Of a DNA stretch of 64,000 bases, positions 28,971-63,752 are shown in pieces. The DNA lies in assembly GCA_964404745.1 (NCBI GenBank), contig CAYOLG010000006.1, positions 4,532 to 68,531 on the forward strand. Reading direction: 5' to 3'. The translations under genes were made by a program, and so were the position numbers. Source of the stretch: an uncultured Opitutaceae bacterium. Lineage in GTDB: Bacteria; Verrucomicrobiota; Verrucomicrobiia; Opitutales; Opitutaceae. A model generated the notes under the pieces. The model had not been told where the DNA came from and did not search any database. It saw only the letters and a program-made list of their open reading frames with translations. The stretch's first letter is position 1, and every line of letters begins with the position of its first letter.

Positions 28971-29460
28971 GCGTATCGGCGTCAAATTAAGCTCGCCCGG
29001 CTTGCGCCGCCGTAGAATCGCGTAGGCGTGAGGTCGAGTTCCACCTTTCTGCGTCGAGTTCAGGGTGGAACCCGACCTCCTGGCGGGTTTTAGAAGCGGA
29101 TATTTGTCGAGTTTACACGCTTATAGATTGGTGGGGCTAAACCCGACAATATTGGGGCTCCTACCTTTCTGTTCTTTGAGGGATGAATGGAGGGGCCGGA
29201 TTCCACGATCAGCGATCGCGACTACAATTCGGTGATTTACGAAACGTCCCAAACCTTTGCGAACCGGAGCGTTTAAGGTAGCGGGCGGTCTCCGAGCGCC
29301 CACATACGGTAGAACCAGCTTCTAGCCTGATAGCTCAATCTCTATAATAATGGCAGGAGGCCCGTGCTGCTTTTCAAATGGCCGCCCGGAGGTCTGCCAC
29401 CACCATTAAGTCTCTAAAGATTCCTTAGGCTACGGGACGAATACCAATCCTCACTACCCT
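28971..29460. repeat. BIME-like mosaic of REP elements, including REPIN family B (28991-29089)
   Basis: 20-mer flank, family B pair with 18-nt spacer, further palindromes near 29130-29166, 29277-29302 and 29352-29404. Confidence 0.7.
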
Positions 29461-29603
29461 TAGGAATGTAACCTGCCAGCCGGAACTGCAAAATTTGAGA
29501 GTGTAATTGCGCAGTTTGGCCAAATCTGCTAGCGGTATAATTCTCGGTGCATCAGACAGATGCCGTTTTGTCCGAATTAACCTGAAACCTCGGAATATTT
29601 ATC

Positions 29604-30917
29604 ATGATTAACGACCCCCTAAATAGACGAAACTTCATTAAAACTACCGGAGCTGCCAGCGTGGCATCGCTTCTAGTCGGCGCTCAGAATCTCCACGCGG
29701 GTGGGGGCAATGATAAAGTAAAAATCGGCCTTATTGGCCTAGGCGGCCGTGGCTGCGGTGCCGGTATCATCGACTGCGCGGAGGCGGATTCCAACATCGA
29801 ACTAGTCGCTATGGGCGACCTTTTTCCTGATCACTTGGAACAGGCGAAAGAGCGCATTAAAGCCAACATGGCTCGCCGCAACCTGCCGTTCAAAGACATC
29901 TACAAAGTCACCCCAGACACCATGTTCTCGGGCTTCGACGCCTATAAGAAGGTCATCGCTTGCGATGTCGATCTGATCATTTTGACCACGCCCCCAGTTT
30001 TCCGGCCTCTACATTTCCGAGCCGCTGTTGAAGCCGGCAAACATGTCTTCATCGAAAAGCCAGTGGCCGTGGATCCTATCGGTGTGCGGCACATCATCGA
30101 GACATCGGAGATGGCGGAAAAGAAAGGACTGACCGTGGTAGCGGGTACGCAAATGCGTCGGGCTCGCCATATCATGGCTGGCATTGAGGAAATTCACAGT
30201 GGGGCCATGGGCGACCTGCTTTCAGGGCAATCAACTCGGATTGGAGGAGCTCTCTCGAACTGGCGTTCAACGGAGGCTATTCGCGACAGCAGCTGGTCTG
30301 ACATGGAATGGCAACTGCGGCGTTGGCTGTTCACTACCTGGGGCTCCGGCGATTTCATCGTCGAACAACACGTTCACAATCTCGACCTGGTTGATTGGGT
30401 AATGGGATCCCACCCCATCAAAGCGATTGGCACCGGTGGCCGCAGTAGCCGTACCGATTCCATCTACCCAAATGTTTGGGACCACATTTCCGTCGAATAC
30501 GAATATCCCAATGGAGCTCGGGTAACCCATATTGGCTCGCAAATGGATGGGGTCAGCTCGCGCAACGACATGCGCATCGACGGCACCAAAGGGCGATTAT
30601 TCCTCAGCTTCGCCAAGGTTACCATCGAAGGGAAAAAGCCTTTTTCCTACGAAGGTCCTCGCCCCAACCCCGCTGTAGTTGAGTATAAGGATACGCTCGA
30701 TGCCATCCGATCCGGCAATACCATCAACGAAGGCAAGCGCATCGCCCAAAGCACCATGACCGCTCTCCTCGGCAGGATGGCTGCCTACACTGGCCGGACA
30801 CTGAGCTGGGACTGGGCGATGAAAGCATCCAAGCTCGATCTGACTCCCAAGGAATGGAAATTCGGCGACCTAGCCATCGATCCGGTGGCCGTCCCAGGAC
30901 AGACGGATTTGGTGTAG
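29604..30917 (+). CDS. Tat-exported Gfo/Idh/MocA oxidoreductase
   Basis: NRRNFIK Tat motif, IGLGGRG, EKPVA, GTQMR, EQHVHNLD. Confidence 0.9.
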   Translation: MINDPLNRRNFIKTTGAASVASLLVGAQNLHAGGGNDKVKIGLIGLGGRGCGAGIIDCAEADSNIELVAMGDLFPDHLEQAKERIKANMARRNLPFKDIYKVTPDTMFSGFDAYKKVIACDVDLIILTTPPVFRPLHFRAAVEAGKHVFIEKPVAVDPIGVRHIIETSEMAEKKGLTVVAGTQMRRARHIMAGIEEIHSGAMGDLLSGQSTRIGGALSNWRSTEAIRDSSWSDMEWQLRRWLFTTWGSGDFIVEQHVHNLDLVDWVMGSHPIKAIGTGGRSSRTDSIYPNVWDHISVEYEYPNGARVTHIGSQMDGVSSRNDMRIDGTKGRLFLSFAKVTIEGKKPFSYEGPRPNPAVVEYKDTLDAIRSGNTINEGKRIAQSTMTALLGRMAAYTGRTLSWDWAMKASKLDLTPKEWKFGDLAIDPVAVPGQTDLV

Positions 30918-31059
30918 GAACGCGTCGCCGTTTCCGCGAAGCGTAGCGCAGACATCCGGACTGTTGCAAACACAGGCTCTAAGACCATGCTGCTCTAATA
31001 GCAATTAACGGCCTGCCAAATCGCGGGACGAGCGAATGAAAGTTACTGGTAGATGACAT

Positions 31060-31103
31060 GAAGTTGCCGAGCCCAGCGCGTCAGCAGCAAACTCGGCAAC
31101 TAC
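31060..31103 (-). repeat. GTAG-footed hairpin
   Basis: Inverted arms gttgccgag / ctcggcaac; reverse complement starts GTAG. Confidence 0.5.
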
Positions 31104-31121
31104 TTGTCATCTACCATTTTT

Positions 31122-31230
31122 AAAGCGAAGAAGAGGATTCAAAATCGGGCTTCATGAAGGTCCGCATTATCGAGCCTGCCGAGCAGGATCTCCTCGATGG
31201 ATATCTTTTCTACGAGAGCGAGGCCAATCC
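31122..31230 (+). pseudogene. Remnant of a type II toxin-antitoxin operon (antitoxin tail + RelE/ParE-type toxin head)
   Basis: KAKKRIQNRAS* overlaps (ATGA 31154-31157) with MKVRIIEPAEQDLLDGYLFYESE, which then loses homology. Confidence 0.6.
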
Positions 31231-31250
31231 ATGGCTATATCTTTCACATC

Positions 31251-31619
31251 ATGAAAATAAGCGTACAGAAACTGGACCACGTGGCCATTGACGTTGTGGA
31301 CGTCGAGAAGGCTAAAACATTCTACAGCGATCTGCTGGGCCTCAAAGAAATTCCACGCCCAGAGAGCTTTACCTTCCCAGGAGCCTGGTACGACTTAGGG
31401 AATATCGTTCTACACATTGTGGGTCCTCGGAAGCCTGCCCTCGGCAAGCACCACATTGCCTTCTGGGTGGATGACGTTCATAAGTGCGCGGAAGAAATTC
31501 TGAAAGCTGGATTCGACGTGAAATGGGATTCGTTTAAGATTCCAGGGGTGGATCGCTTTTTCACCTCGGACCCAGAAGGGAATCGTATCGAGATTCAAGG
31601 AACTGAACGTATTCAGTAA
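31251..31619 (+). CDS. VOC/glyoxalase family protein
   Basis: LDHVAI, GAWY, HHIAF and DPEGNRIE motifs. Confidence 0.9.
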   Translation: MKISVQKLDHVAIDVVDVEKAKTFYSDLLGLKEIPRPESFTFPGAWYDLGNIVLHIVGPRKPALGKHHIAFWVDDVHKCAEEILKAGFDVKWDSFKIPGVDRFFTSDPEGNRIEIQGTERIQ

Positions 31620-31737
31620 TCGGATAAGTAGGTATAGAGTTCACGAACCTCGAATTCATCCAAGCATATCAATTTCGATCGCTTGGTGAAGTCGTTTAGC
31701 TCATGAGCGTCAATTCAACTGATATTGCTCCCTTAAT

Positions 31738-31807
31738 CCCGCCCGGAGGTCGGGTTCCACCCTTGAATTCGATGCTAAAAGGTGGAGCCCGATCTCCGGG
31801 CGGGCTT
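31738..31807. repeat. REPIN family B
   Basis: cccgcccggaggtcgggttccacc, 19-nt spacer, then ggtggagcccgatctccgggcgggctt. Confidence 0.85.
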
Positions 31808-32050
31808 GGGTTTAGATACGCGCGCTCAGCGGGAGAACCGTCCTTATTGTGCCGCTCATCGGAACATCCCGGCGAAGCACAAGCGATGACAAGTATTGTC
31901 AGCGTCCCGCTGCGCGAGCCTAGGAATCTCTGCCTGCGACAGAGCCAATAGGATTCGCTTCGCGAATATAGGTTCGGAAGCGAAATCAGCATTCTTGGCT
32001 TTACGCATTATCTCAAAATGGTCCTGCTAGTTTCTCGTTCAATAAGCCGA

Positions 32051-32923
32051 ATGGCAAAATCCCTATTTGACAGTCAACTGAGAGCCTTTGCTTTTGCTAC
32101 CATATTCGTTTCTGTTTGCTTTCAACTAGCGGTAGCGGATACCTGGACGGTGGAGGTGCTCATTTACGATCTGGAGACGCCTGAAGGTCCAGTTTGGGAT
32201 GCTGAGAATGATCGACTCTTCTTTACGGAAATATTCGCTCACAAAGTTCACGAATACGACCCAGCCAATGGAGCATTCGGCGTCATCCGAAGCGACTCCG
32301 GTGGCGCCAATGGAATGGCCTTCGATGGCCAGAACAGGCTGCTCATGTGCGAGATGCTTGGACGTCGAGTGAGCCGGCTGGAAACGGACGGATCGATCAC
32401 TACTCTTTGGGAAGCGGAACAGCCCGGCAGAGGCGGACCCAATGACATCACGATCAGCTCTATCGGAAACGCCTATTTCACCATGCCACGGCACGGGACT
32501 ATTTACCGCATAACTCCTGACGACAAGGTCAGCCCGTTTATCGATAATCTTCCCGGAATCAACGGTGTCCTCCTTTCTAACGACGAACAAACGCTGTTCG
32601 TAACCGAGTATAGAGCCCGCAAAGTTCACGCCTTCCCTATTGATGACAAACGAGGCACCGTAGCTGAAGGAAAACCCTTCGCGGAGATCAAAACAGAAGG
32701 CGAGGAGCACGGAGCCGACGGTATGGCGATCGACTCTCATGATCAACTATACGTAGCCTGCCTCGGCGGTGTTTGGATATTTGATACGCGTGCAGGAACA
32801 CAAACAGGCATGATCTCGATGCCCGATGAGAAAGTGACCAATTGCACGTTCGCGGGAAGCGACAACACGCTGTACATCACGTCGCAGAAAGGGCTTTTTG
32901 TCGCCCGCCGCAGTTTGCGGTAA
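32051..32923 (+). CDS. SMP-30/gluconolactonase/LRE family protein, secreted
   Basis: PEGPVW, ANGM, GPND, NGV and ADGMAID blades; hydrophobic leader. Confidence 0.9.
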   Translation: MAKSLFDSQLRAFAFATIFVSVCFQLAVADTWTVEVLIYDLETPEGPVWDAENDRLFFTEIFAHKVHEYDPANGAFGVIRSDSGGANGMAFDGQNRLLMCEMLGRRVSRLETDGSITTLWEAEQPGRGGPNDITISSIGNAYFTMPRHGTIYRITPDDKVSPFIDNLPGINGVLLSNDEQTLFVTEYRARKVHAFPIDDKRGTVAEGKPFAEIKTEGEEHGADGMAIDSHDQLYVACLGGVWIFDTRAGTQTGMISMPDEKVTNCTFAGSDNTLYITSQKGLFVARRSLR

Positions 32924-33171
32924 GGTCCCCGATTTTTCTCTACAAACAATTAACCTGCGAATAGGCCTATGACTTAACCGCAATGGACGCTAAGAACGCT
33001 AAGCGAGGGAATTCAATCCCATCGCGATCTTGGCGTCCTTTGCGGTTTTGAAAAGAGCTAGGTCTGTAAAACAATAGGTTTCGGTTGGGGCCCATCCCAG
33101 CAATCTCATGAGCAAGCCCAGAACCGAATTTGCCTGACAAAGCTGGGCTTCGTCTGCCTTAACAGTGAGCA

Positions 33172-34431
33172 ATGCCCTCTCCTACCCAATCCAGCAAACT
33201 ATCAAAGCTTTTCTCGCTAATTGGTCCGGGGATTCTAGTAGCGGCCACGGGCGTGGGCGCTGGGGATCTTGCCACTGCTGGCTTTGCGGGAAGCCAGCTG
33301 GGAGTGGCCGTTCTCTGGGCAATTCTGGTGGGAGCATTCTTCAAGTTCGTCTTAACCGAGGGACTGATGCGCTGGCAGCTAGCGACCGGCAAGACGCTAC
33401 TCGAGGGAGTCGCTCGCTACCTGGGACCCATTCCTGGCTGGTTGTTTCTAGCCTACTTCATCCTATGGTCCTATTTTGTCGGCACCGCCCTCATTTCGGC
33501 CAATGGCGTGGCCCTTCTAGCCTTGGTTCCGATTTTCGACGATCCGACTACCGGCAAAATCGCGTTTGGGGTTGGGGCCAGTTTTCTCGGGCTTATTCTC
33601 GCCCGCAAAGGCGGATTTAAACTCTTTGAGAAAGTAATGGGCGTATGCATACTGATGATGTTCATTACCGTTTCCATCTCTGCTATAATTGTCGCCCCTC
33701 CCTTTATCGAGATCGCCAAGGGACTGGCTATACCCACGATTCCCAAGCCCGATGAAGGCGGCATCGGATGGACCCTCGCCTTGATGGGAGGGGTCGGCGG
33801 AACCGTGACGGTTCTATGCTATGGCTATTGGATCGCCGAGGAAGGAAGGAGAGGTCCTGAGCATCTAGCATTCTGCCGGATCGATCTCGGTATTGGTTAT
33901 CTGGTTACGGCTATTTTTGGGATCGCCATGACCGTAATTGGCTCAACAGTGATAGTCAGTGGCAGCGGGGCGGGTCTGATCGTGAATACCTCCGACGCCT
34001 TGGCTGAATCGGTTGGGGCCATAGCTCGCTGGACCTTTCTAGTTGGAGCTCTGGGGGCGGTTTTCAGTAGCCTGTTAGGGGTATGGCAATCCACGCCCTA
34101 TCTTTTTGCCGATCTATGGCGTCTATTTGTTCAGAAGGCCAACATTGAGGCGAATTCACCTGCCAATACAAACTCTAAACCTTATCGGTTATTTCAATAC
34201 GCGTTAGCTTTTATCCCCATGCTAGGGCTATTGGTGGAGTTTAAAGAGGTGCAGAAAATCTATGGAATCGCAGGGGCTCTGTTCTTGCCCATGCTTACCG
34301 TTGCCTTGCTGATCCTCAATGGCCGTAAGCAATGGGCGGGTAAATTAAAGAACCAACCCTTAACGATCGCGACTCTAGTATCGATTCTGGCATTCTTCAG
34401 TTGGATGGCCTGGCGGAGCGGGTTCGGTTGA
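33172..34431 (+). CDS. NRAMP-family (YcsG-like) transporter
   Basis: GPGILVAATGVGAGD N-terminal motif; about 11 TM helices. Confidence 0.8.
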   Translation: MPSPTQSSKLSKLFSLIGPGILVAATGVGAGDLATAGFAGSQLGVAVLWAILVGAFFKFVLTEGLMRWQLATGKTLLEGVARYLGPIPGWLFLAYFILWSYFVGTALISANGVALLALVPIFDDPTTGKIAFGVGASFLGLILARKGGFKLFEKVMGVCILMMFITVSISAIIVAPPFIEIAKGLAIPTIPKPDEGGIGWTLALMGGVGGTVTVLCYGYWIAEEGRRGPEHLAFCRIDLGIGYLVTAIFGIAMTVIGSTVIVSGSGAGLIVNTSDALAESVGAIARWTFLVGALGAVFSSLLGVWQSTPYLFADLWRLFVQKANIEANSPANTNSKPYRLFQYALAFIPMLGLLVEFKEVQKIYGIAGALFLPMLTVALLILNGRKQWAGKLKNQPLTIATLVSILAFFSWMAWRSGFG

Positions 34432-34450
34432 TTCCGACAATCCGCGTAGC

Positions 34451-34591
34451 GTAGGAGCGAGTCTTTCCCGCGATTTACGCGGCTGATCGCGGCCTGAGGA
34501 CGGTGCTACGCCAATGAGGACTGAGACAGTCCTCCCTACCTGACTCTTGAATCGCCTAGTCGATGGTAGGGCCGGTTGTCCCAACCGGCCG
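34451..34591. repeat. BIME-like cluster of three REP types between convergent genes
   Basis: gtaggagcg...gtgctac (34451-34509), family A arm (34516-34540), ggtagggccggttgtcccaaccggccg (34565-34591). Confidence 0.7.
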
Positions 34592-34624
34592 AAACCGTTT
34601 CCACAACCCAGCCCACCGCGGCTG

Positions 34625-36109: not shown

Positions 36110-36128
36110 ATTAATAATTCGCGCGATT

Positions 36129-36992: not shown

Positions 36993-37111
36993 AGGCCGTA
37001 TAGCCAAGCAGGTGCATCGAGAAAGACAACTTATTGTTTCGCATCTCTAGATCGATCCGCCCAATTGACGGCCAAGCCGCCATCCATTCGCTGACACCTA
37101 ACATCCAATTT

Positions 37112-37168
37112 GCGGTCGCTCGGCTTGCGCCGCTGTAGCCGCGCAGAGGCGTGAGATCGACCGCTACC
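37112..37168 (-). repeat. REP family B (GTAG variant) with 30-nt insert
   Basis: Minus strand: ggtagcggtcgatct|cacgcctctgcgcggctacagcggcgcaag|ccgagcgacc. Confidence 0.75.
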
Positions 37169-37235
37169 ATTTGCTTTGCAAAAGGACCTTCGTGGTGTTC
37201 ATTTAAACAACGCAAATCCCGCAATGGTAATCCCA

Positions 37236-39338
37236 ATGAAGACTTTCTCAGCTTTTCTTTCCCTTTTCTGTTGTGCCTGTTCCCTTGGGATCGAAATAGA
37301 TCGATCGGGATTTGAATCCGGGGGAACCTTCGCTTTCGGTGAAACCGAAAATGGTTTTCGCCTGCAATGGGCGACGAAGCGAGAAACGGCTCACATTGAA
37401 TTCCAGTTTATACCCCGACGGGGAAACAATCCAGCCGGGCCGCTTATTCGGGAAGTTGGAATAGATGGGAAACCCATTATGACCGATCTCGATCCGAATT
37501 ACCTATTTTGGATCGGCGAGCGCGATCTGGAAAAACGATCTGGCTGGTCCATTTTTTTCGATCGCGTGCCTACTCGGCCCTATTCCGTCGAAAAAGGCTA
37601 TCTAACGCCAACCACCGCACACATCGAATCTAAAGGTAATCGGACCACCATCGAGATCGATGGATTAAAGAGCGTCCATTTTTCCGGCTCGTTAGCTTTC
37701 ACATTCTACGAAGGCAGTCCGTTTTTCAATATGGAAGCCCGCGTGTCCACCGAACGGGAAGCAACTGCCTTCCTCTACCACGTCGGCCTGGCCAAATTGG
37801 ATACCGACGGCCTTCAGCTACATTGGGTCAATCCCCTAGGCCGGCCACAGACTTCAGAAATCGTCAAAGAAACTGCCAAGGTATATGAAACCCGATACCG
37901 CTCGCTGGCCCTATCCTCTTCAGCCGGATCCATCGCCATCTCGCCCTTTCCCCATCAATATTTGTATCCCCTCGATTTTGCGGAAAACTATGGCTACAAT
38001 TGGGCCGGTCACGAATATCTGGATATGATCGACGGCTTCGCCTTCGGCATTCGCCAGCCCAGCATTGGTGATCGTCGCTACGTGCCCTGGGTCAACGCGC
38101 CCCCTGGATCCCTGCAAAAACTGGGAGGGCTGATATTCATTTCCAAAGGCCACGGTCATGGAAATTTGGCTACTGTTACTCGCTATACGCGAGGTGACCG
38201 ATTTAAAAAATTGCCCGGCTACAAGACCTTCACCAGCCACTACCATATAGAGCATTCACTGGACTACATCGAGAAGCAGCAAGAACAGGGTAATGATGGA
38301 ATTCCTAGAGGACTGCAGCGCCCTGAATTCGTCGACGTATTCAAAAAAATGGGCGTGGATATCGTCCACCTAGCCGAATTCCATAAAGGCGTTACACCGC
38401 AACTGGAAACCGAGGAGCGTTTGACCCAGCTCAAGGTTATGCACGAGGAGTGCGAGCGGCTTTCCGATCGCGGCTTCCTCCTCCTTCCCGGAGAGGAGCC
38501 AAACGTGCATCTGGGCGGCCATTGGATCAGCTTCTTTCCCAAGCCCGTCAATTGGGTCCTCAACCGAAACGAGGGCCAGCCATTCGTTCAAGAGCTTGAT
38601 GGCTTTGGCACCGTCTATCACGTCGGCAGCCCAGAAGATATCTACGAGTTGTTGAAACGGGAGAACGGACTCGCTTGGACCGCCCACGCGCGGATCAAAG
38701 GCTCCACCCGATTTCCCGATGCCTACAAAAATACCGATTGGTTCCAAAGCGAGCAATTCTTGGGAGCCGCCTGGAAAGCTATGCCCGCCGACTATTCTCG
38801 CGATTCACTTGGCTGGCGCGTAATCGATCTGCAAGACGATATGGCCAATTGGGGCCACGAGAAATACACGATCGGCGAGGTCGATATCTTCAAGATCTTC
38901 AAAGGGTACGAGCTGTTCGGAACCATGAACATCAACTATCTGAAGCTCGATTCGGTACCCGAATATAAAGATGGCTGGCAACCGATACTGGATGTCCTGA
39001 GCCAGGGAAAATTCTTTGTTACGACTGGCGAAATTCTCATCACTGATTTCTCGATCGGCGGCAAGGAGAGCGGCGATAGCTTATCTAAGAGACAAGCGAG
39101 CGGCGTCGCTAAACTTAAGGCTTCCCTCGAATGGACCTACCCGCTCGATCGGCTAGAAGTTGTATCAGGCGACGGAAAACGCGTCTATCGAGAGCGTGTT
39201 AGCCTGATTGATACAAAGGAATTCGGCAAGCGCGACCTAGCTCTGGACGTCGACTTGTCCGAACGAAAATGGGCTCGTATCGAAGTTTGGGATATAGCCA
39301 AGAATGGGGCTTTTACTCAGCCTGTGTGGATCGAGTAG
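37236..39338 (+). CDS. Large secreted hypothetical protein with probable PHP-like metallohydrolase C-terminal domain
   Basis: Signal peptide; HYHIEH, EFH, GEEPNVHLGGHW and AHARIKG resemble PHP/CehA-McbA metal ligands. Confidence 0.5.
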   Translation: MKTFSAFLSLFCCACSLGIEIDRSGFESGGTFAFGETENGFRLQWATKRETAHIEFQFIPRRGNNPAGPLIREVGIDGKPIMTDLDPNYLFWIGERDLEKRSGWSIFFDRVPTRPYSVEKGYLTPTTAHIESKGNRTTIEIDGLKSVHFSGSLAFTFYEGSPFFNMEARVSTEREATAFLYHVGLAKLDTDGLQLHWVNPLGRPQTSEIVKETAKVYETRYRSLALSSSAGSIAISPFPHQYLYPLDFAENYGYNWAGHEYLDMIDGFAFGIRQPSIGDRRYVPWVNAPPGSLQKLGGLIFISKGHGHGNLATVTRYTRGDRFKKLPGYKTFTSHYHIEHSLDYIEKQQEQGNDGIPRGLQRPEFVDVFKKMGVDIVHLAEFHKGVTPQLETEERLTQLKVMHEECERLSDRGFLLLPGEEPNVHLGGHWISFFPKPVNWVLNRNEGQPFVQELDGFGTVYHVGSPEDIYELLKRENGLAWTAHARIKGSTRFPDAYKNTDWFQSEQFLGAAWKAMPADYSRDSLGWRVIDLQDDMANWGHEKYTIGEVDIFKIFKGYELFGTMNINYLKLDSVPEYKDGWQPILDVLSQGKFFVTTGEILITDFSIGGKESGDSLSKRQASGVAKLKASLEWTYPLDRLEVVSGDGKRVYRERVSLIDTKEFGKRDLALDVDLSERKWARIEVWDIAKNGAFTQPVWIE

Positions 39339-39507: not shown

Positions 39508-39572
39508 GGTAGGGAGGATCGGCTCGATCCTCCGATTTACTCAGATGAAGGACCAAGCCGGTCCTCCCTACC
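39508..39572. repeat. REPIN family A (65 bp)
   Basis: ggtagggaggatcggctcgatcctcc + gatttactcagat + inverted arm ending ccctacc. Confidence 0.9.
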
Positions 39573-39584
39573 TGATTAGGAGGA

Positions 39585-46021: not shown

Positions 46022-46128
46022 GGTAGGGAGGATCGGCTCGATCCTCCGAAGTTTGTAACTGGAGGACCGAACCGGTCCTCCTTACCAGATTCCTCTGCGA
46101 AGGAATCGCTGGATGAACCCGCTCCTAC
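46022..46128. repeat. REPIN family A (46022-46086) plus GTAGGAGCG REP (46103-46128)
   Basis: 65-bp copy with spacer gaagtttgtaact; reverse complement gtaggagcgggttcatccagcgattc. Confidence 0.88.
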
Positions 46129-48294: not shown

Positions 48295-48316
48295 GGGGAA
48301 CGGTGGTAACTAGAAG

Positions 48317-49997: not shown

Positions 49998-50062
49998 GGT
50001 AGGGAGGATCGTCTCGATCCTCCAAAATATGAACTTGGAGAACCGAGACGGTCCTCCCTACC
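49998..50062. repeat. REPIN family A (65 bp)
   Basis: Arms around the 13-nt spacer aaaatatgaactt; lies between divergent genes. Confidence 0.9.
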
Positions 50063-50120
50063 CAAAAGCCCATGGCAAATAGAATTGATCGCCACTTCGG
50101 GACGCATAGCTTGGTGGCCT

Positions 50121-51815: not shown

Positions 51816-51904
51816 GTATCTCAAAGCTAGCGAGGCATCTTAGTTCTCCATCCCGCCAGAGCCAGGGCGCATAGGCGTCAACTTAACTAACATTCAAATA
51901 GATT

Positions 51905-51977
51905 AAACGCGCCGGGACGTCGCGTTCCACCCACAAAACCGTCGCAAAAAGGTGGAGCTCGACCTCCGGGCGGGCTT
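51905..51977. repeat. REPIN family B
   Basis: ...gcgttccacc, 19-nt spacer, then ggtggagctcgacctccgggcgggctt. Confidence 0.85.
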
Positions 51978-52294
51978 AAATTGTCGACAATCCGCGCTGG
52001 CGGGAGCGCGGAAAGATAGCCCTCCTGCTACCCAATTCCCGCCAAATCCGCATGGGCCCCGATGACCCAAAATTATCCGATAACCCCGAAATATCGATTT
52101 TTGGGCATCATGTGTAAAATACCCGCGCATATAAGCTGGACATAAACCATTCCCGTGATTGCCTCTGTGACTTAACGATTAACCGTTTTTCTGCTCCCAC
52201 TTCCCCGTCACGGCCCAAATGGCTTTCTTGCGTTTGAAGCCAAGACCTAGCAGGAAAACACACAATTAACCCTTATGAGAGGTTCTTCCTAAAT

Positions 52295-53857: not shown

Positions 53858-53881
53858 AGCTCTCCAGAGATTCACTTTTTC

Positions 53882-53913: not shown

Positions 53914-53937
53914 GTCTAGCGGTATTGCCGATCATAA

Positions 53938-53998
53938 AAACCGCCCGGAGATCAGGTTCCACCCTCGAAGACGATTCATAAAGGTGGGGCTCGACCCC
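53938..53998. repeat. REPIN family B with truncated right arm
   Basis: ccgcccggagatcaggttccacc, 19-nt spacer, then ggtggggctcgacc. Confidence 0.75.
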
Positions 53999-54075
53999 AA
54001 TGCACATCCTCGGGATCCAGTAGCGAGATCGCCCGCTACCTTTTCGACGCCGAAACCTTCTTTGAATGTCCGCCT

Positions 54076-55779: not shown

Positions 55780-55881
55780 GCTTCCATGTTCCTTTCTACC
55801 TGCTCCGATGCAAAGCATTTCAATCAAATTCAGCCGTTGCTATCGCCTGCAAACTCGCAACTTACTTGTGGTGTCACCAAC

Positions 55882-56958: not shown

Positions 56959-57626
56959 AAATCTCCTTCTCAAAAGCGAAATACTCGCGATGGCTCGCGT
57001 CGGCGATACCTGCATCCATCTTTTTGATATCGGGTTGCTCAAAGGAAGCGGCTTTGACTGAAGAAGAATTCGCCAAAGCGGAGACTGTCTTCAACGACTC
57101 CTGCCTCATTTGCCATAGCTCTCAGGAAATGCAGCGAGGACCCATCGTCGATGGGCTTCCTGCCTGGTATAGCCAAGCCCAACTCAAGAAATTCAGAGAT
57201 GGCATACGGGGCCAGAATCCCGAAAATCGCTCCGAGCTGCTAATGGGATCCACTCGGGATCTTTTCGATGACGATGAATCCATCCGCCTCCTCAGCCAAT
57301 ACATCTCCCAGCTGACGCCCAAACCGCACATTAAAGTCGTGCGAGGAAACGCGGAGCGAGGGCACCTTATCTATGGCACCTGCCTCCTTTGTCACGGAGC
57401 CTACGGACAAGGCAATGAACGCCTGCGTTCGCCACCGCTGAACATGCTAGAAGATTGGTACCTGCTAGATCAGCTCCGGAAATTCGCTTCCGGAAAGCGA
57501 GGCTACCATCCCGAGGATCCCTATGGCATCCAAATGGCGTATTCGCTCAAAGGATTCAGCGACCAGGATTTGAAGGACGTTGTTGCCTACATTCAGGGAT
57601 TCTCCAAACCGCCGGAAAGCGAGTAG
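56955..57626 (+). CDS. Diheme cytochrome c4-like lipoprotein
   Basis: Lipobox ISGC; CLICH and CLLCH; YxxxQLxKF in both domains; distal Met ligands. Confidence 0.85.
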   Translation: MKISFSKAKYSRWLASAIPASIFLISGCSKEAALTEEEFAKAETVFNDSCLICHSSQEMQRGPIVDGLPAWYSQAQLKKFRDGIRGQNPENRSELLMGSTRDLFDDDESIRLLSQYISQLTPKPHIKVVRGNAERGHLIYGTCLLCHGAYGQGNERLRSPPLNMLEDWYLLDQLRKFASGKRGYHPEDPYGIQMAYSLKGFSDQDLKDVVAYIQGFSKPPESE

Positions 57627-57627
57627 A

Positions 57628-57692
57628 GGTAGGGAGGACCGTCTCGGTCCTCCAAAACTAGAAAATGGAGGACCGAGACGGTCCTCCCTACC
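57628..57692. repeat. REPIN family A (65 bp, perfect inverted arms)
   Basis: ggtagggaggaccgtctcggtcctcc + aaaactagaaaat + ggaggaccgagacggtcctccctacc. Confidence 0.92.
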
Positions 57693-57771
57693 CAATGCAG
57701 TGGTGTTCACCGCTAATGGGCGACAAATTCTTGCAATGCCGATATCATCAACAAGCCCTTCCCGTCTGTCT

Positions 57772-58593
57772 CTACTGCGCCACGAACTCCTGCACGGCTG
57801 ACTTTAATTGCGGGTAAGCGAAAGCGAATACGGCGACCAAGGGGAGCATGCCCAGTGACGACCCCGCCATCAAGACGGCCTGAGGGGAATTCAGACTGCT
57901 TCCGTAAAGAGCAGCCAGGCTAATCGGCAATGTCCGCGTCTCTTCGCTGTTCAAAATCAGCATAGGTATGATGTGGGCGTGCCAGGACAGCACGAAATGG
58001 GCGAATCCAAAGGCCAGTAGAAAGGGTCTGACCAAAGAAAGCGTCAGCAAAAACACTCGAAACTCGGAAGCCCCTTCCATTCTGGCCACGTCTAGCAGGT
58101 CGCCAGGAACCTGACGGTAAACGCGGGCGAAGAATATCAGGCCTAAGCCGCTAACCATTCCCGGTAGAGCCACTCCAAGAAGACTGTCGAATAAGCCCAA
58201 TGAATTCACCCACATGAACAAGGGAAGAGCGACCATCTGGGCTGGTATGAGGACCACCAGAATGCCTAAAACCAGAAATCCATTGCGAGCCCGAAATCGA
58301 TTGGTCCCGATCACGAAACCCGCCATCGCGGCCAGCAAAGTGGCCCCTGCTCCCTGACTCAAGGAAACGAATACTGAATTCGCCAAAGTTCGGAGGAATG
58401 GAAAATAGTCATTGGAAAACAGCGTCCGGTAATATTGTCCACTCCATTCTTTCGGCCAAAAAATTCGTGTGTTGAAAATCTCGGCGTTCGATTTGAATGA
58501 ACCAAGAATCATCCAGAAAAGTGGATACAAAAAGACCAGTGTCGCCAGGGCCACAAGACCGCCCAATACAATGGCAATGAGCTTTCGGCTCAT
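57772..58593 (-). CDS. Carbohydrate ABC transporter permease (MalG-like)
   Basis: ARMEGAS EAA loop; NSVFVS and W..IPM motifs. Confidence 0.9.
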   Translation of the reverse strand: MSRKLIAIVLGGLVALATLVFLYPLFWMILGSFKSNAEIFNTRIFWPKEWSGQYYRTLFSNDYFPFLRTLANSVFVSLSQGAGATLLAAMAGFVIGTNRFRARNGFLVLGILVVLIPAQMVALPLFMWVNSLGLFDSLLGVALPGMVSGLGLIFFARVYRQVPGDLLDVARMEGASEFRVFLLTLSLVRPFLLAFGFAHFVLSWHAHIIPMLILNSEETRTLPISLAALYGSSLNSPQAVLMAGSSLGMLPLVAVFAFAYPQLKSAVQEFVAQ

Positions 58594-59498
58594 CGAGTCG
58601 CGCCCTCCTTCCAGATGAATCTAGGAATCATGGCCACTAGTACAAGCGCGCCTCCTAGCCAAGGAACGATGGAGAGGCTCACCGCTGCCCCGCTGCCGAA
58701 CCCGCCTCCGATAAAGGCTTTTTGATAGGCATAGGTCACCAAAAGCAAACCCGCATCATTCGTCCCTCCCGATCCGCCGAAAAGGACATAGGATCCGGCG
58801 AATTGAGCGAAGCAATCGATGATCAGGTAAATCAGGCAGAACGTCAGGGTCGGGGCGATGAGGGGCAAAGTAATGTGGACAAAACGGTTCCAAATACCGG
58901 CTCCATCCATTTTGGCCGCATCGAGAATTTCCTGAGGACGAGCGTTTAGGGCGCAGAGGAGGAAAAAAGCCATGAAACCGGTCCAGCGCCAAATCGCTTG
59001 AATCACTACAGCTGCCAAAATAAAGTCCGGATCTGAAAGCCAATTGATCGTTTCAAACCCAAGAGGTTGCAATATCCATCGATTCAGAAGCCCTTCCTGG
59101 CCATGGAAGACGAGAAGGAACAGCAAGGCCAAAACCGTAGGGGGACAAAGACCGGGGATCATTAGCCCGAATGCCAAGGGCCCTTGTATTCGGCGGTTGC
59201 ACAGACGTAAGGCATGGGCAAAGACAAGAGCCAGCGCGATGGTAATAGTGACCGTCGCCAAGGTAAAAACAGCCGTGTTTAGAACCGCTCGCCAATAGCG
59301 CGAATCAAACAAGAGATCCCGATAATGCTGCAGACCAACGAAGGTCGACTCTCCAAACAGGGTATCGGATTCTAGGCTTAGCAAAAGCCCCTTCCCCAGG
59401 GGCGTGAGCCAGAACAGGGAAAGAAATACAAAAAACGGAGCCAGAAGCCAAACCCGACCCCAGCTTGGCCAAAACCTGTCGCTGAGCGAAGGCTGCAT
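58590..59498 (-). CDS. Carbohydrate ABC transporter permease (MalF-like)
   Basis: AAKMDGA EAA loop, WRWTG, HITLPL. Confidence 0.9.
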   Translation of the reverse strand: MQPSLSDRFWPSWGRVWLLAPFFVFLSLFWLTPLGKGLLLSLESDTLFGESTFVGLQHYRDLLFDSRYWRAVLNTAVFTLATVTITIALALVFAHALRLCNRRIQGPLAFGLMIPGLCPPTVLALLFLLVFHGQEGLLNRWILQPLGFETINWLSDPDFILAAVVIQAIWRWTGFMAFFLLCALNARPQEILDAAKMDGAGIWNRFVHITLPLIAPTLTFCLIYLIIDCFAQFAGSYVLFGGSGGTNDAGLLLVTYAYQKAFIGGGFGSGAAVSLSIVPWLGGALVLVAMIPRFIWKEGATR

Positions 59499-59510
59499 CG
59501 AGGAGGGTCT

Positions 59511-60827
59511 CTAGTTGGCCCCTGGAGGTGGACCGCCGCCACCTTCGAGCTGCTCCTTGAATCGGGTCAGAGCGGTCCGAGCATCCCCTTCGCCATACAT
59601 GACCGAGCTCAGCATGCCCTCTCGGATCATGAAGACAGCCATCGGACGCTTGGGATTCATCATGACTCTCGGCACTTCCGGGGCGAGATCCACCAAAATT
59701 TGGCCCATTGAATCGTATCCAAAAAATGGCTGCGGTTGCAACAGACGGATGTCCTCGAAGGCGGGTTTGTAGGCGGGGAAACTATTGCCCTGCAAGAAAC
59801 GCTGCGCATTCGCCTCCCGATTGGTCATGACGAATTTCATGAATTCCCATGACTCGTCTATCAAATCGCTCCCTTTATAGATGACCAATCCTTGCCCTGC
59901 GAAAGTCGACGTCCGGACCGAATTCGGATTACCGTCTTCATCGGTCCAAACGGGCAGCGGCATAATGCCCCACTCTCCTTCAAGCTCGGATGAAAACTGC
60001 TGGATCATATCCAGACCGTACCAATCGGCACCCATAATGGCGAGAATCTCGTTATTGGCCACATCGCCACCGAAAAACACGGGGTCGAAAATGGTGCTCC
60101 GATCCGGCATTAGACCAATTCGCTTTTGAGCCAGCTCGCCAAGAAACTCCAAGGTATCCACCGCCAGCTCGAAATCGGGCAGCACTTCGCCTGATTCCGA
60201 AAAAAGATGCCCGCCTCGCTGCCGCAATAGCATACCGAAATAGCTGGGATCCAAAGCGAGCAAGGGCTGATTCTGACCCGCCAGCTCCTCGCCGATAGCC
60301 ACAAAGTCGTCCCAAGTCTTGAATTCGCTCGGGGACAGGCTGAACTGCTTAAAGAGGTCCCTCCTATAGTAGATCACCACTGCGCTCAGCGACTGAGGGA
60401 GCCCCAGTACTCGCTCTCCAACACTGAAGAGCTCCAGGCGCTGAGGCATAATGGACTCGTCTAGCCCTGCCGCCTTAACGCGATCGGTTAGATCCACAAA
60501 CGGAGCCTCCCCTTGGAGATACATCCCGAAAAACACTTCATCGAGCTGCACAATGTCTGGAGTGTTGGTCTGCGTTTTGAAGGCGATGGCCAGCTTGTCC
60601 GGCATTTCCCTAAATCCGAATGCCTGCACTTCAGCCTGAAAATCGGCATCCACCTCCTGCTGGTAAAGCCGCACCATATTATCGTAGTAAATTTTGTCCT
60701 GCTGTGAACTGATCCAAATCTTTACCGGATCGGCCAATAAGACTTTCGCTGCGGAGCTTGCCATCAGAGTGGCCGCCAGAAAGCTCAGCCCCTTAGCGAT
60801 TTTTGAAAAATTGAGAAACGCATTCAT
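59511..60827 (-). CDS. Carbohydrate ABC transporter substrate-binding protein
   Basis: Signal peptide; PDIVQLD, VIYYRRDLF, PKTWDDF-like motif, WGIMPLP. Confidence 0.88.
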   Translation of the reverse strand: MNAFLNFSKIAKGLSFLAATLMASSAAKVLLADPVKIWISSQQDKIYYDNMVRLYQQEVDADFQAEVQAFGFREMPDKLAIAFKTQTNTPDIVQLDEVFFGMYLQGEAPFVDLTDRVKAAGLDESIMPQRLELFSVGERVLGLPQSLSAVVIYYRRDLFKQFSLSPSEFKTWDDFVAIGEELAGQNQPLLALDPSYFGMLLRQRGGHLFSESGEVLPDFELAVDTLEFLGELAQKRIGLMPDRSTIFDPVFFGGDVANNEILAIMGADWYGLDMIQQFSSELEGEWGIMPLPVWTDEDGNPNSVRTSTFAGQGLVIYKGSDLIDESWEFMKFVMTNREANAQRFLQGNSFPAYKPAFEDIRLLQPQPFFGYDSMGQILVDLAPEVPRVMMNPKRPMAVFMIREGMLSSVMYGEGDARTALTRFKEQLEGGGGPPPGAN

Positions 60828-61137
60828 ATTGGTATGATTTTCCGTTGTTAAAAGCTATTCGGGATTACGTCGAGGGAGAAGATGGAGGACAAAGACGACT
60901 GTGCCGAAGTTCCTATGCAGGATTCGTATCTGCGGGCACTCTCACGCCTCTGCATGGCTACGGCGGCGCAAGCCGATCGTTCTTTCATCGAATTTCTTGC
61001 CATAAACTGAGATCAGCGCGGCTGGCTGGCTGGATTGGTCGTATCGAGATGCGCTCAAGCCAAACGCAATCCTCGAATGGAATTCCGTTCGATACGGGCG
61101 TGACAGTACCCTCAATCCTCAACTACGGTGCCCTTCT

Positions 61138-61989
61138 ATGCCGCAAATCGGTCAACGGAATCGTCTCGAAATCGTTCGGGACTCGCCTCAAGGGCCTTAC
61201 ATAGATGGTGAAAACCTTGGAGAAATATTGCTACCCGCATTTCAAAAGCCCGAATGGGCCAAGGTCGGGGATGTGCTGGACATCTTCTTGTATCGCGATT
61301 CTGAAGACCGATTGATTGCGACAACTCGGTCCCCTCGAGCGATGGTTGGAGAATTCGCCTGCCTCGAGGTAACTGACGTGAACCCCAAAGTCGGGGCCTT
61401 TCTCGACTGGGGTTTGGAAAAGGACATTCTCCTACCTTTTCGCGAACAAAAGAAACGAGTCCAGGTGGGGGAGAAAGTTATCGTCTATATCAAAGTGGAC
61501 CCGGATACGGATCGCCTGATCGCCACAGCTCGCTTTCATCGCTATCTCGATCAAACCAAGCGCCACTACCGTAAAGGCGATCCCGTCAAGCTGCTGGTAA
61601 TGGAAGAAACGCCCATTGGCTACCGGGCAATCATCGAGAATGCTCACACGGGCCTGCTATATAAAACCGAGTTGTCAGGGCCCCTTGAACACGGGGAGTC
61701 TTTCACGGGATTTATTAGAGATGTTCGAGAGGACGAGAAAATCGATCTGCGGCGCGATCCATCCGGCTATGGCCGAGCCCTGCCGCTTGCCGAGGATATC
61801 TATGATCGACTGATTGAATCCGGAGGCTATCTCCCATTCAACGACAAGTCCCCTCCCGAATTGATTCGCTATACCTTTTCCACAAGCAAGAAAGCCTTCA
61901 AACAAGCTTTAGGCATGCTCTACAAGCAGCAGCGCATCGAGTTCAAAGGCGACGGCATCGCGGTTGTCAGCGCGGAAGCAGAGAGATAG
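61138..61989 (+). CDS. cvfB: S1 RNA-binding domain protein CvfB/YitL
   Basis: GAFLDWGLEKDILLP, GLLY, SKKAFKQALGMLYK winged-helix tail. Confidence 0.9.
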   Translation: MPQIGQRNRLEIVRDSPQGPYIDGENLGEILLPAFQKPEWAKVGDVLDIFLYRDSEDRLIATTRSPRAMVGEFACLEVTDVNPKVGAFLDWGLEKDILLPFREQKKRVQVGEKVIVYIKVDPDTDRLIATARFHRYLDQTKRHYRKGDPVKLLVMEETPIGYRAIIENAHTGLLYKTELSGPLEHGESFTGFIRDVREDEKIDLRRDPSGYGRALPLAEDIYDRLIESGGYLPFNDKSPPELIRYTFSTSKKAFKQALGMLYKQQRIEFKGDGIAVVSAEAER

Positions 61990-62022
61990 AACGCAGCTCG
62001 CCGTATGGAACGGCAGCTCAAA

Positions 62023-62050
62023 CTAGCGCGGGCCGAAGCGCCGCGCTACC
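62023..62050 (-). repeat. Solitary GTAG REP hairpin between convergent genes
   Basis: Reverse complement ggtagcgcggcgcttcggcccgcgctag. Confidence 0.6.
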
Positions 62051-62062
62051 TCATTCAACTAA

Positions 62063-62548
62063 CTACAGTCCCTTGAAGTAGCTATCCAGCAACGAGGGGG
62101 TTTTCTTTTTCCGCTTGGGAGCCCGCGAAGTCGTTTCCTCTGTCGACCGGGAATCGTCCTCAACCGCCCCCTTCTCAGGCAACTGCCCCGACCGGGTTTT
62201 CGCAAGGACCCGCTTCGGCTGAGTGAGAGGAATGACATCGAAATCGATTTGCGGAAAGAGATCCTCAGCTACGCCGTAATCATTCGTCCCCGTTCCCATT
62301 TTCGCGAGCAGCTGCTCGTCGATCGATCTTTCAGGAGCCACCGGTTCATGAGCGGATTCCAGTTGATTCATTTCCTGCTCCTGAGTGGACAGTTCCGAAT
62401 CGCCCGCCAATCCCCGCAAAGGCTCATCGGTTTGCTCGTTCGAATCCAACAAACCTCGCTCCTTCGCTAATCGTTGCAGCTCCGAGCTGCGACGGCGACG
62501 GCGGGCAACCGCATCGAAAATCGACTTATCCTGATCGTCAGAAGGCAT
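62063..62548 (-). CDS. Hypothetical charged, low-complexity protein
   Basis: About 160-aa ORF filling the gap; acidic with basic patches; start 62548 or 62554. Confidence 0.65.
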   Translation of the reverse strand: MPSDDQDKSIFDAVARRRRRSSELQRLAKERGLLDSNEQTDEPLRGLAGDSELSTQEQEMNQLESAHEPVAPERSIDEQLLAKMGTGTNDYGVAEDLFPQIDFDVIPLTQPKRVLAKTRSGQLPEKGAVEDDSRSTEETTSRAPKRKKKTPSLLDSYFKGL

Positions 62549-62721
62549 TTGCAACTCTCCAGTACCTTAGATTTTCGAGGCGATTTGTAAATAGCGCGAT
62601 GAGAAAAGCGGTTTAAAGAAATGTTAAATGCTCACATTCCCACTTCATCCCAGCCAGGCAATTGCAGGAGATATCAGGAAGCGCCGAGTAGAGAAACGGG
62701 GGAAGCGAATCGAATAGGCGT

Positions 62722-63654
62722 ATGGCGACGAAAATCAGTTTTTTCAATTTAAAGGGTGGCGTGGGCAAAACCTCCCTGCTGGTGAATGTCGCATCCTGTC
62801 TGGCCTATCTGGGAAAAAAGGTTCTCGTCGTTGATTTCGATGCTCAAAGTAACTCCAGCATTTGGCTCATGAGACTGGATCGCTGGAACGCCCTCAATCG
62901 AGATCCCAGCAATTTTATCCTCAGTCTATTCAAGGAACCGGGTCGCTCGCTTGGGTCCTGCATCCAGAAGGATGTCGTTCGCGACGCCAACGGCGAAATC
63001 GCCCTCAAAGGCTTGGACCTAGTTCCAGCCAGCTTCAACCTGATGGATCTCGAGCACGAGGTGCCCAACCCTTGGGAAAAGCCCTTCTACGCCCACTTCT
63101 TCCAGGAGCTTCGATCTGTGGAGAAGGACTACGACTACATTTTCTTCGATTGTCCACCCAGCTTCTCCCGCGCCCCCCAATGCGCCGTATTCAGCAGCGA
63201 ACATATAGTCGTTCCCGCCAATCCCGATGCCTTGAGCATCATTGGATTCCACTTGCTCATCGAAAAGCTAGACTACTTTCGCAAGCAAAGCCTTCGCTGG
63301 AGGAAGGAGCTCTCAGCCCCCTTTCCTCACGTTCTCGGCATATCCATCAACGCCGTGAAGCCTGGTACCAATATCGACGTGCCACTAGAGCGATTCAAGG
63401 CCCAAATCGAACGCTTTGCAGCCCAGAAAAAAGTTCCCGAATCAGCCCGTATCTTTCCCGAGCAAATCCGGCACTCAGTCACCGTAGGACGGGCCGTTAT
63501 CCAAGGCTTGCCGATGGTTCTCATGAGCAAGCGAGAGGCGTCAATCAAGGTGGCTGAGGATTACATCCGCACTACCCAACGCATCCTGGAGCTCATCAAA
63601 GAAAAGTCGTCTCCGGAAGAAGCCAGCTTACTCGACAGCTTCGGACAGAACTAG
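62722..63654 (+). CDS. ParA/Soj-family ATPase (orphan)
   Basis: Deviant Walker A KGGVGKT, DFDAQSN, FFDCPP. Confidence 0.9.
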   Translation: MATKISFFNLKGGVGKTSLLVNVASCLAYLGKKVLVVDFDAQSNSSIWLMRLDRWNALNRDPSNFILSLFKEPGRSLGSCIQKDVVRDANGEIALKGLDLVPASFNLMDLEHEVPNPWEKPFYAHFFQELRSVEKDYDYIFFDCPPSFSRAPQCAVFSSEHIVVPANPDALSIIGFHLLIEKLDYFRKQSLRWRKELSAPFPHVLGISINAVKPGTNIDVPLERFKAQIERFAAQKKVPESARIFPEQIRHSVTVGRAVIQGLPMVLMSKREASIKVAEDYIRTTQRILELIKEKSSPEEASLLDSFGQN

Positions 63655-63697
63655 CTTCGTATTATTGGCCCTGTTATCTTTTGTACCGCAAGTGAAT

Positions 63698-63752
63698 GTT
63701 AGCTTCTGATCTCGCGCCTTCGCTAAAGCTACGGCGGAGCGAGCCGAGCAGC
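63698..63752 (+). repeat. REP family B variant with 31-nt insert
   Basis: gttagcttctgatct|cgcgccttcgctaaagctacggcggagcgag|ccgagcagc. Confidence 0.7.

Follow-up and report, generated by a model that had tools for sequence, protein, structure and literature searches.

A 30-nt module at the apex of REP hairpins in an uncultured Opitutaceae bacterium, with filled and empty orthologous sites and related cores in hairpin loops of other phyla

The stretch of DNA analysed here, 64 kb from an uncultured Opitutaceae bacterium and hereafter called the window, carries genes for sulfatases and for ThuA, GFO/IDH/MocA and DUF7133 proteins. The spacers between its genes contain repetitive extragenic palindromic (REP) hairpins, some of which are interrupted in the loop by a 30-31-nt insert that we call the module. 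Gene content and protein homologues assign the window to marine Opitutae (Verrucomicrobiota), its nearest named relative being Ca. Pelagisphaera phototrophica (89% amino-acid identity for one enzyme). GC skew is negative throughout positions 1-64000 (about -0.05 to -0.10), indicating that the whole window lies on one replichore, with a C-rich plus strand. We found four copies of the module, all intergenic and all at the apex of GTAG-tagged REP hairpins of a host family named REP-B, the insertion point always falling between ...(A/G)YCT and CCG.... An earlier note on this sequence had reported three of these inserts, whose coordinates, strands and flanks we reread and confirmed, but it had overlooked the fourth, which was picked up by a pattern scan. 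Copy 1 (CACGCCTACGCGATTCTACGGCGGCGCAAG, 30 nt, 29001-29030, minus strand) lies between GGTGGAACTCGACCT and CCGGGCGAGCT and has the same sequence in three independent contigs (L115, L116 and L118). Copy 2 (CACGCCTCTGCGCGGCTACAGCGGCGCAAG, 30 nt, 37124-37153, minus strand) lies between GGTAGCGGTCGATCT and CCGAGCGACCGC. Copy 3 (CGCGCCTTCGCTAAAGCTACGGCGGAGCGAG, 31 nt, 63713-63743, plus strand), between GTTAGCTTCTGATCT and CCGAGCAGCCGTAG, is of the GGAGCGAG type, unlike the other three copies. Copy 4 (CACGCCTCTGCATGGCTACGGCGGCGCAAG, 30 nt, 60943-60972, plus strand) is found again in loci L139, L161 and L163. The module pattern gave three exact matches in the window against 0.00 expected from 100 shuffles. 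The window sites recur in independent JGI, ENA and Logan assemblies at 99.5-100% identity and without gaps, and identical module loci are also present in Sanger assemblies of the Global Ocean Sampling (GOS).

The module has strongly conserved ends, C(R)CGCCT and CTACGGCGG(C/A)GC(R)AG, around a variable middle of 7-9 nt. CTAC, which had been pointed out as a feature of the insert, is invariant among the copies, though the search patterns demanded it. Read on the opposite strand, the module takes the form ...CCGCC-GTAG-(short, often imperfect palindrome)-GGCG, the palindrome being perfect in a few copies (L078, L064, L059). The termini, CACGCC... and ...GCGCAAG, are not inverted repeats, and the junction is ambiguous by one base: it can be read as CT^CA...AG^CC or as CTC^AC...AGC^CG, where ^ marks the junction. 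The small stem that the insert had been credited with could not be upheld. Over 36 distinct copies a candidate 5-bp stem formed 3.25 of 5 pairs, versus 3.18 of 5 in partner-shuffled controls (p = 0.18), and DNA folds of filled REPs were not better than those of shuffled sequences, with the sole exception of the 37124 copy.

The host hairpins follow a common layout: 5'-G(G/T)T(A/G)G, a 6-nt stem, (A/G)(T/C)CT, the module if the REP is filled, CCG(A/G)G and the complementary stem. There are 13 REP-B arms in the 64 kb, all intergenic, and a 5' tag GGTAG, GGTGG or GTTAG precedes 12/12 of the regular ones. Their stems are GC-rich with complementary variants (AGCTCG/CGAGCT, CGGCCG/CGGCCG, CGGTCG/CGACCG, AGCCCG/CGGGCT), and host REP DNA folds with z = -1.8 to -3.5. 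Inverted doublets resembling REP doublets forming hairpins (REPINs) occur at 1786-1860, 28987-29092, 31733-31809 and 51903-51979. In the doublet 28987-29092 the module occupies one arm only: the left arm (28987..29045, minus strand) is a filled REP of a GTGG-tag subtype, GGTGG-AACTCG-ACCT(module)CCGGG-CGAGCT, and its partner (29064..29092, plus strand) is empty, GGTGG-AACCCG-ACCT^CCTGG-CGGGTT. The second host (37110..37168, minus strand) belongs to a GTAG-tag subtype, GGTAG-CGGTCG-ATCT(module)CCGAG-CGACCG. The third (63698..63757, plus strand) has a decayed 5' arm, GTTAG-CTTCTG-ATCT(module)CCGAG-CAGCCG, and the fourth (60928..60982, plus strand) is a decayed REP-B in which the module stands between GCGGGCACTCT and CCGATCGTTC.

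Syntenic regions of related species were retrieved via homologues of the genes flanking the filled REPs, all filled/empty orthologous pairs being from the Planctomycetes-Verrucomicrobia-Chlamydiae (PVC) group. At site 63713, downstream of a ParA-like gene, the window reads GTTAGCTTCTGATCT, 31 nt of module and CCGAGCAGCCGTAG. The same REP is empty in L174, L175 and L176 (GGTAGCGGCTGATCT^CCGAGCAGCCATAG; ~79% nucleotide identity in the neighbouring genes) and in L177 and L180 (GGTAGCGGTTTATCT^ACGAACAGCCATAG; ~82% nucleotide identity). We regard it as orthologous because its locus-specific 3' arm, CAGCC(G/A)TAG, and its flanks align, and the 31-nt module is the sole length difference between the filled and the empty forms. 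At site 37124, between a ThuA-like gene and a gene of 720 aa, the window reads GGTAGCGGTCGATCT, 30 nt and CCGAGCGACC, and L182, L183, L185 and L186 carry the same REP without exactly these 30 nt. At both sites, filled and empty orthologues have kept the same locus-specific arms, and target-site duplication is absent. The search for filled and empty alleles in related genomes that the earlier note had proposed thus yielded empty orthologous REPs at two window sites, with an indel of exactly 30 or 31 nt: orthologous hairpins gain or lose the module as one discrete unit.

The direction of change could be addressed at one of these sites. The relatives compared at 37124 all belong to one lineage (97.6% mutually identical) and the comparison gives no direction. 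At 63713, a quartet of 3942 aligned coding positions grouped the window with L177 and L174 with L178 (124 informative sites versus 67 and 62; 1000/1000 bootstraps), and an outgroup-rooted CvfB tree placed the window and L177 together with L174 outside (support 74.5% and 82.5%). Since L177 and L174 are both empty at this site, one gain in the window lineage is more parsimonious than two identical precise losses, which favours a gain of the module at 63713. The two other filled sites say nothing on the module alone. Around 60943, the whole REP-bearing segment of ~110-170 nt is absent from the SBP-CvfB spacer of related species, and at 29001 Ca. Pelagisphaera phototrophica lacks the whole REP cluster. 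L174 has a filled REP of its own at 6692 (minus strand), paired with an empty arm at 6586 (plus strand), at a position that is occupied in the window by a REP of its other family. At the position orthologous to L174 6692, L178 (a TARA scaffold, ~2330-2400) contains a diverged 30-nt insert, CAAGTCGTAGCGCCGCCTCGGCGCTGCAAG, at the same loop position, part of which resembles the module in reverse orientation (GCGCCGCC).

We then considered the range of hairpins that carry the module. A metagenome scan for the module alone gave 43 loci, and stem subtypes existing both filled and empty numbered seven, in two REP families. Five are REP-B subtypes (CGGCCG, CGGGCG, CGGTCG, A(A/G)CTCG and CGGCTG). The others belong to a second host family, encountered on Sargasso Sea contigs and in one metagenome-assembled genome (MAG), with the sequence GGGAGG-GTCCAG-CT^CCGT-CTGGAC and a second subtype GCCCGG/CCGGGC. 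REPs of this Sargasso family form doublets of ~90-120 nt in which the module sits at CT^CCGT in either of the two arms, leaving the other empty; no doublet with both arms filled was seen among those sampled. Loop position and orientation with respect to the host's GTAG tag do not vary among the PVC-type copies, whose left junction always falls after CT. The insert is therefore not a mostly free sequence found at random sites. Nor do the insert-bearing REPs form one clade: with at least seven stem subtypes in two families, each also known empty, filled REPs are polyphyletic. One filled REP (L155, Ga0102940_1116772, ~950-1000) combines a 5' arm and upstream flank of Sargasso subtype a with the spacer and 3' arm of subtype b. 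Either recombination took place at the module, or two sequences were joined at the 30-nt repeat during assembly.

The core of the module, with consensus CGCCTTCGC-N-AAGCTACGGCGG(A/C)GC(A/G)AG, also given as CGCCTTCGC-N-AAGCTACGGCGGAGC(A/G)AG, is not specific to REPs. A scan of genome collections with the pattern CGCCTN{6,9}CTACRGCGGMGCRAG returned at least 114 matches, mostly noise, including GC-rich chance matches. Among the matches listed, the core was recognised in Bacteroidota (L002, L014, L018, L020, L083, L084, L091, L099, L100, L112), in the Candidate Phyla Radiation (CPR; L054, L105), in Chthoniobacterales (L078), Acidobacteriota (L064) and Sumerlaeota (L071) and, within REPs of the window's own type, in Opitutales (L062, L073, L080, L102). 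A profile built from the core family recovers further copies that the pattern missed. The window copy at 63713 is 28/29 identical to a Levyibacteriota copy located in an rRNA spacer (L105). Within these loci, the two flanks of the core show better pairing with each other than do randomly chosen positions (Mann-Whitney p = 1.4e-4), and the resulting stems are unrelated between lineages (CAGCTTTCT/AGAAAGCTG, CCCTCCC/GGGAGGG, GGCCTGCCTG/CAGGGAGGCC). Related cores thus occur in unrelated hairpin loops of several phyla.

Several of these loci have features of their own. In a Bacteroidota MAG (L099, JBMOLL010000053.1, 5540-5650), one hairpin holds a truncated module followed by a complete one, into which a diverged module-like sequence of 31 nt is set between CTACGG and CGGAGCAAG; this arrangement suggests that modules can nest or duplicate within modules. 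The spacers of rRNA operons contain two copies, L105 1032-1062 and L078 352-381, both situated just upstream of 23S rRNA. In the Levyibacteriota locus L105, a duplicate of the 5' part of the adjacent tRNA-Ala gene immediately precedes the module, which gave the idea of a tRNA-derived module. We rejected it, as ARAGORN finds the intact tRNA only and the similarity stops at CGCCT. About 45 of the at least 114 matches come from one conserved gene of Sphingomonas and Brevundimonas. An identical 26-nt match, CGCCTCGAAGGCTACAGCGGCGCGAG, with identical flanks is found in L001, L005, L006 and about 45 further loci, in many Alphaproteobacteria (Sphingomonas, Brevundimonas and others) and in a few unrelated genera, e.g. 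Arthrobacter. It has no relation to the module and resembles a conserved gene that has been widely transferred or is a contaminant.

These results show the module to be discrete non-coding DNA, gained or lost independently of the hairpin carrying it. As to how it moves, we infer, with about an even chance of being right, that it is inserted as single-stranded DNA (ssDNA) by an enzyme of the Y1/HUH type acting in trans. Hairpins with a GTAG tag are bound by RAYTs (REP-associated tyrosine transposases), which cleave ssDNA at CT or CA dinucleotides under the guidance of GTAG (PMC8266576, PMC3333891). The single-stranded route is favoured by these cutting habits, by the single-stranded state of the apex, by the junction after CT and by the GTAG and palindrome on the opposite strand of the module. 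An extruded or replicating hairpin would offer an unpaired loop, into which the module would enter as ssDNA. The enzyme, supplied in trans, could be a RAYT, an IS200/IS605-like TnpA or a comparable ssDNA-specific nuclease-ligase. It would recognise the two conserved ends and leave the middle free to vary, and insertion would take place at the fixed point ...YCT^CCG... without target-site duplication. Because its opposite strand reads like a miniature REP, the module is best seen as a REP-like mini-element nested, in inverted orientation, within the loop of the larger host REP. Its behaviour is that of selfish DNA and implies no function for the cell. The earlier note had suggested either a tiny site-specific element in REP loops or a spread by conversion. 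The empty orthologues, the polyphyletic hosts and the fixed position support this pair of readings as an either/or, transposition and conversion not being told apart.

Several observations weigh against insertion by such an enzyme. The TnpA_REP of E. coli cuts C^T, which fits neither permitted junction (CT^CA or CTC^AC), and the right junction, AAG^CC, contains no CT. To our knowledge, 30 nt with at most one weak hairpin is far below the size of any demonstrated IS200/IS605 derivative. Regular-expression and Pfam checks found no RAYT, IS200-like or GIY-YIG open reading frame (ORF) in the window or in ~180 fetched loci. The polarity rests on one site and on parsimony, and no empty allele was seen within the population in same-species contigs and Logan contigs of 8 runs, which cannot show rare variants. 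The window copies differ strongly in the middle and so give no sign of a recent burst. They show no strand bias (two on the plus and two on the minus strand), in a sample of four whose orientation is dictated by the host REP. The conservation across phyla is partly a matter of ascertainment, since the search patterns fixed 20-22 positions and inflated the apparent identity; the unconstrained middle (TCGC.AAG) still matches across phyla, which shows homology. A bolder reading, which we advance tentatively and hold to be possible rather than probable, is that the module is the smallest mobile DNA element yet seen. It would be a non-coding element of ~30 nt without terminal repeats, homing into the ssDNA apex of hairpins (REPs in Verrucomicrobiota, others in Bacteroidota, CPR and Acidobacteriota). 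A widespread ssDNA nuclease-ligase would move it in trans, and it would act as a hyper-parasite of REPs and REPINs that crosses phyla.

The main rival, which we consider doubtful, is template switching or gene conversion through microhomology. During replication or repair, a nascent strand at a REP hairpin would copy the module from a filled REP via the conserved loop flanks and stem (GATCT and CCGAGCG) and then switch back, without any dedicated enzyme, and the module would spread or be erased only among hairpins with common loop flanks. GA(T/C)CT and CCG(A/G)GCG do flank the junction in all REP-B copies, providing 5-8 nt of homology where it is needed. The lack of target duplication, the fixed orientation and the near-identical doublets that hold filled and empty arms side by side all agree with such a process. 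None of the 13 arms of REP-A, a second REP family of the window, is filled, although its 3-nt loop contains CT, and this fits the need for matching loop flanks. L155, with its type-a 5' arm, module and type-b 3' arm, may be a chimera of the kind expected, but it may also be an assembly chimera at the 30-nt repeat. Such copying accounts for spread within a REP family. However, copying between REP-B loops cannot explain the core in other phyla, where stems and loop flanks are unrelated, or in the Sargasso family (GCT^CCGT), and the module gained at 63713 is of the GGAGCGAG type and not that of the other three window copies. Since the locus-specific arms are kept at both filled/empty sites, any conversion tract must end inside the 5-6-nt loop flanks, a homology very short for repeated precise events. 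It is unlikely that, instead, the long-loop REP is ancestral, the module being a protein-recognition loop from which short REPs arose by precise deletion and both forms being propagated by the RAYT of the REP. Loop length does vary within REP families, up to 27 bp in Bradyrhizobium GTAG-14 and between long and short forms in enterobacterial GTAG-3 (PMC3733652). Filled arms of the Sargasso family are near-identical over more than 100 nt, as if the composite were copied as a unit, the stems that enclose the core in Bacteroidota are related from one genome to another (L018, L083, L084), and at 60943 and 29001 the entire REP and its module are there or missing together. Against this, the two nearest lineages are empty at 63713, which would take two independent precise deletions; the same junction would have been deleted repeatedly in at least seven stem subtypes with 1 nt of microhomology; and the locus-specific arms do not differ between filled and empty orthologues.

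We also considered, as very unlikely, a cis-acting function of the core: selection would keep it in hairpin loops as the binding site or RNA motif of some widely conserved factor, and its spread would be secondary. The strong conservation of the ends around a variable middle across phyla and the two copies upstream of 23S rRNA (L105, L078) would agree with it, and NTS/SRM repeats, ~28 nt long and conserved across phyla via the GIY-YIG ssDNA nuclease Ssn (PMC11893778), offer a precedent. Yet Rfam covariance models run over the window and 18 loci gave 0 matches over the module at the gathering threshold and generic hairpin noise alone at E <= 10, and no covariation-supported structure was found. 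Gene contexts and orientations are heterogeneous, the module neighbours including divergent, tandem and convergent genes, and presence differs between close species at orthologous sites with gene content unchanged. The core had no match in plasmid and E. coli genome collections, which makes descent from a universally conserved RNA gene less likely. Chance similarity or an assembly artefact is effectively refuted: metagenome assemblers can mis-join at short repeats, and L155 is a possible example, but 0.00 chance matches were expected, identical loci appear in the independent JGI, ENA, Logan and Sanger (GOS) assemblies, and the indels are clean in aligned orthologous spacers.

REP-B hairpins are of the kind of the GTAG REPs and REPINs associated with RAYTs (TnpA_REP; Di Nocera 2013, Bertels & Rainey 2011, Ton-Hoang 2012, Corneloup 2021). 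Opitutus terrae has several GTAG families (GTAG-17, -19 and -20), with GTGG replacing GTAG in most GTAG-20 copies, and complementary stem variants and loop-length variation occur within GTAG families (Di Nocera et al. 2013, PMC3733652). Likewise, the 5' GTAG tag of REP-B is often GTGG, as in O. terrae GTAG-20, its stems are GC-rich and of 6-8 bp, and it is extragenic with inverted doublets. On its opposite strand the module itself reads GTAG plus a short palindrome, which over 36 copies paired no better than controls. Its junctions differ from the C^T cut of E. coli TnpA_REP, and a RAYT was not located in the window or the fetched loci. A literature search found no REP family whose orthologous members differ by a discrete loop insert of 30 nt, nor one in which such an insert is shared between REP families and phyla.

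For elements of the IS200/IS605 group, a pair of subterminal hairpins with guide sequences is essential, and the derivatives of this group measure at least 100 nt. Like them and their miniature derivatives, the module lacks terminal inverted repeats and target duplication and is inserted in a fixed orientation 3' of a short fixed motif (here CT), in DNA expected to be single-stranded. Unlike them, it is 30 nt long and has at most one weak hairpin rather than subterminal hairpins at both ends. The bias towards the lagging-strand template that is typical of such elements was not seen among the four window copies, two on each strand under uniformly negative GC skew. Insertion sequences that target REPs, namely IS1397 and ISKpn1 in REP loops and ISPpu9, ISPpu10 and ISPa11 of the IS110 family, are 1-1.5 kb long and encode a transposase (Tobes & Pareja 2006, PMC1525189). 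The module shares their site specificity for a defined position in REP hairpins and differs in being 30 nt long and non-coding. Classical and nested miniature inverted-repeat transposable elements are, like the module, small, non-autonomous, multi-copy and intergenic, but the module has no terminal inverted repeats or target-site duplication and is several-fold smaller. NTS/SRM repeats are oriented motifs of ~28 nt scattered between genes across distant phyla and recognised by the Ssn GIY-YIG ssDNA nucleases (Chenal et al. 2025, PMC11893778), and they provide a precedent for a trans-acting ssDNA nuclease holding a motif constant across phyla. The NTS consensus, CGTCATTCCCGCGMAVGCGGGAATCYRG, is itself a hairpin, in contrast to the module, and is unrelated to it in sequence; no cd10448-like GIY-YIG ORF was found near any fetched module copy. 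In Mesorhizobium sp. CA14 (L042, 6360-6420), a pattern match lies within an NTS/SRM-like hairpin (CGTCATTCTACGG ... CCATAGAATC) whose long loop holds CGGAGCAAGGAGCGAAGCG, which could connect the SRM repeats with the GGAGCAAG motif or be coincidental.

Few bacterial repeats are as abundant as REPs and REPINs, and their diversification is poorly understood. REPs, REP loop-length variation and insertion sequences that target REP loops are already known, and the module is REP-type non-autonomous DNA. Our literature search turned up no account of a non-coding cassette of 30 nt that is gained by orthologous REP loops, that more than one REP family carries and that has related loop cores in distant phyla. 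Here a separable cassette of 30 nt is added to or lost from the REP loop at a single exact bond, and filled and empty orthologues form clean pairs. A hairpin with a CT^CCG loop plus the 30-mer would constitute an assayable substrate with which to seek the responsible ssDNA enzyme. Should the module be an independently mobile element, transposable DNA can be smaller than known so far, and one repeat family would be seen to parasitise another. That cores in Bacteroidota and CPR are nearly identical points to a conserved factor acting in trans, in the way that the Ssn nucleases were reached from the NTS repeat. On the practical side, the module causes assembly breaks and spurious small ORFs in metagenome-assembled genomes.

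RAYT genes (Y1 transposases, PF01797) are usually single-copy and usually have REPs on their flanks. Pfam searches of 20 window ORFs gave no nuclease or transposase, and an all-against-all comparison of the ORFs of 38 module-bearing loci revealed no protein family recurring across phyla. Viral contigs contained one plausible copy and five chance matches, so that there is essentially no phage link, and a literature search by sequence string returned irrelevant primer matches only.

The uninterrupted REPs that the earlier note had placed at 1834, 31781, 51951 and about 3174 (here 3169-3197) are all real, and further ones were identified at 29064, 29277, 29376, 31733 and 53935. On the plus strand, the empty arms are GGTGG-AGCTCG-ATCT^CCGAG-CGAGCT at 1834..1862, with a degenerate inverted partner at ~1791-1813 (minus strand), GGTAG-CGGGCG-GTCT^CCGAG-CGCCC at 29277..29305, and GGTGG-AGCTCG-ACCT^CCGGG-CGGGCT at 51951..51979, with a degenerate partner at ~51908-51932 (minus strand). 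Those on the minus strand are GTTAG-CGGCCG-ATCT^CCGAG-CGGCCG at 3169..3197, GGTGG-TGGCAG-ACCT^CCGGG-CGGCCA at 29376..29404 and GGTGG-AACCTG-ATCT^CCGGG-CGGTT at 53935..53963. An inverted doublet with both arms empty (31733-31761, minus strand, and 31781-31809, plus strand) spans 31733..31809 and folds as DNA at -29.4 kcal/mol (z = -7.0). The empty loop at 29277 reads GGTCT in the window (29287) and GATCT in the same-population contig L115 (9684), a polymorphism that adjoins the insertion point. The 13 arms of REP-A, with consensus GGTAG-GGAGGAYCG-KCT-CGRTCCTCC, lie at 13816-13880, 21609-21676, 34515-34543, 39508-39575, 46022-46089, 49998-50065 and 57628-57695, mostly as inverted doublets ~34 nt apart. 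Finally, the filled REP at 37110..37168 is probably in the 5' leader of the 720-aa gene. Its orthologues are predicted at 749-751 aa because their called start lies upstream of the REP, but the conserved ATGAAGACTTTC, at ~37236 in the window, looks like the true start (window 37176-37240; L183 4001-4090).

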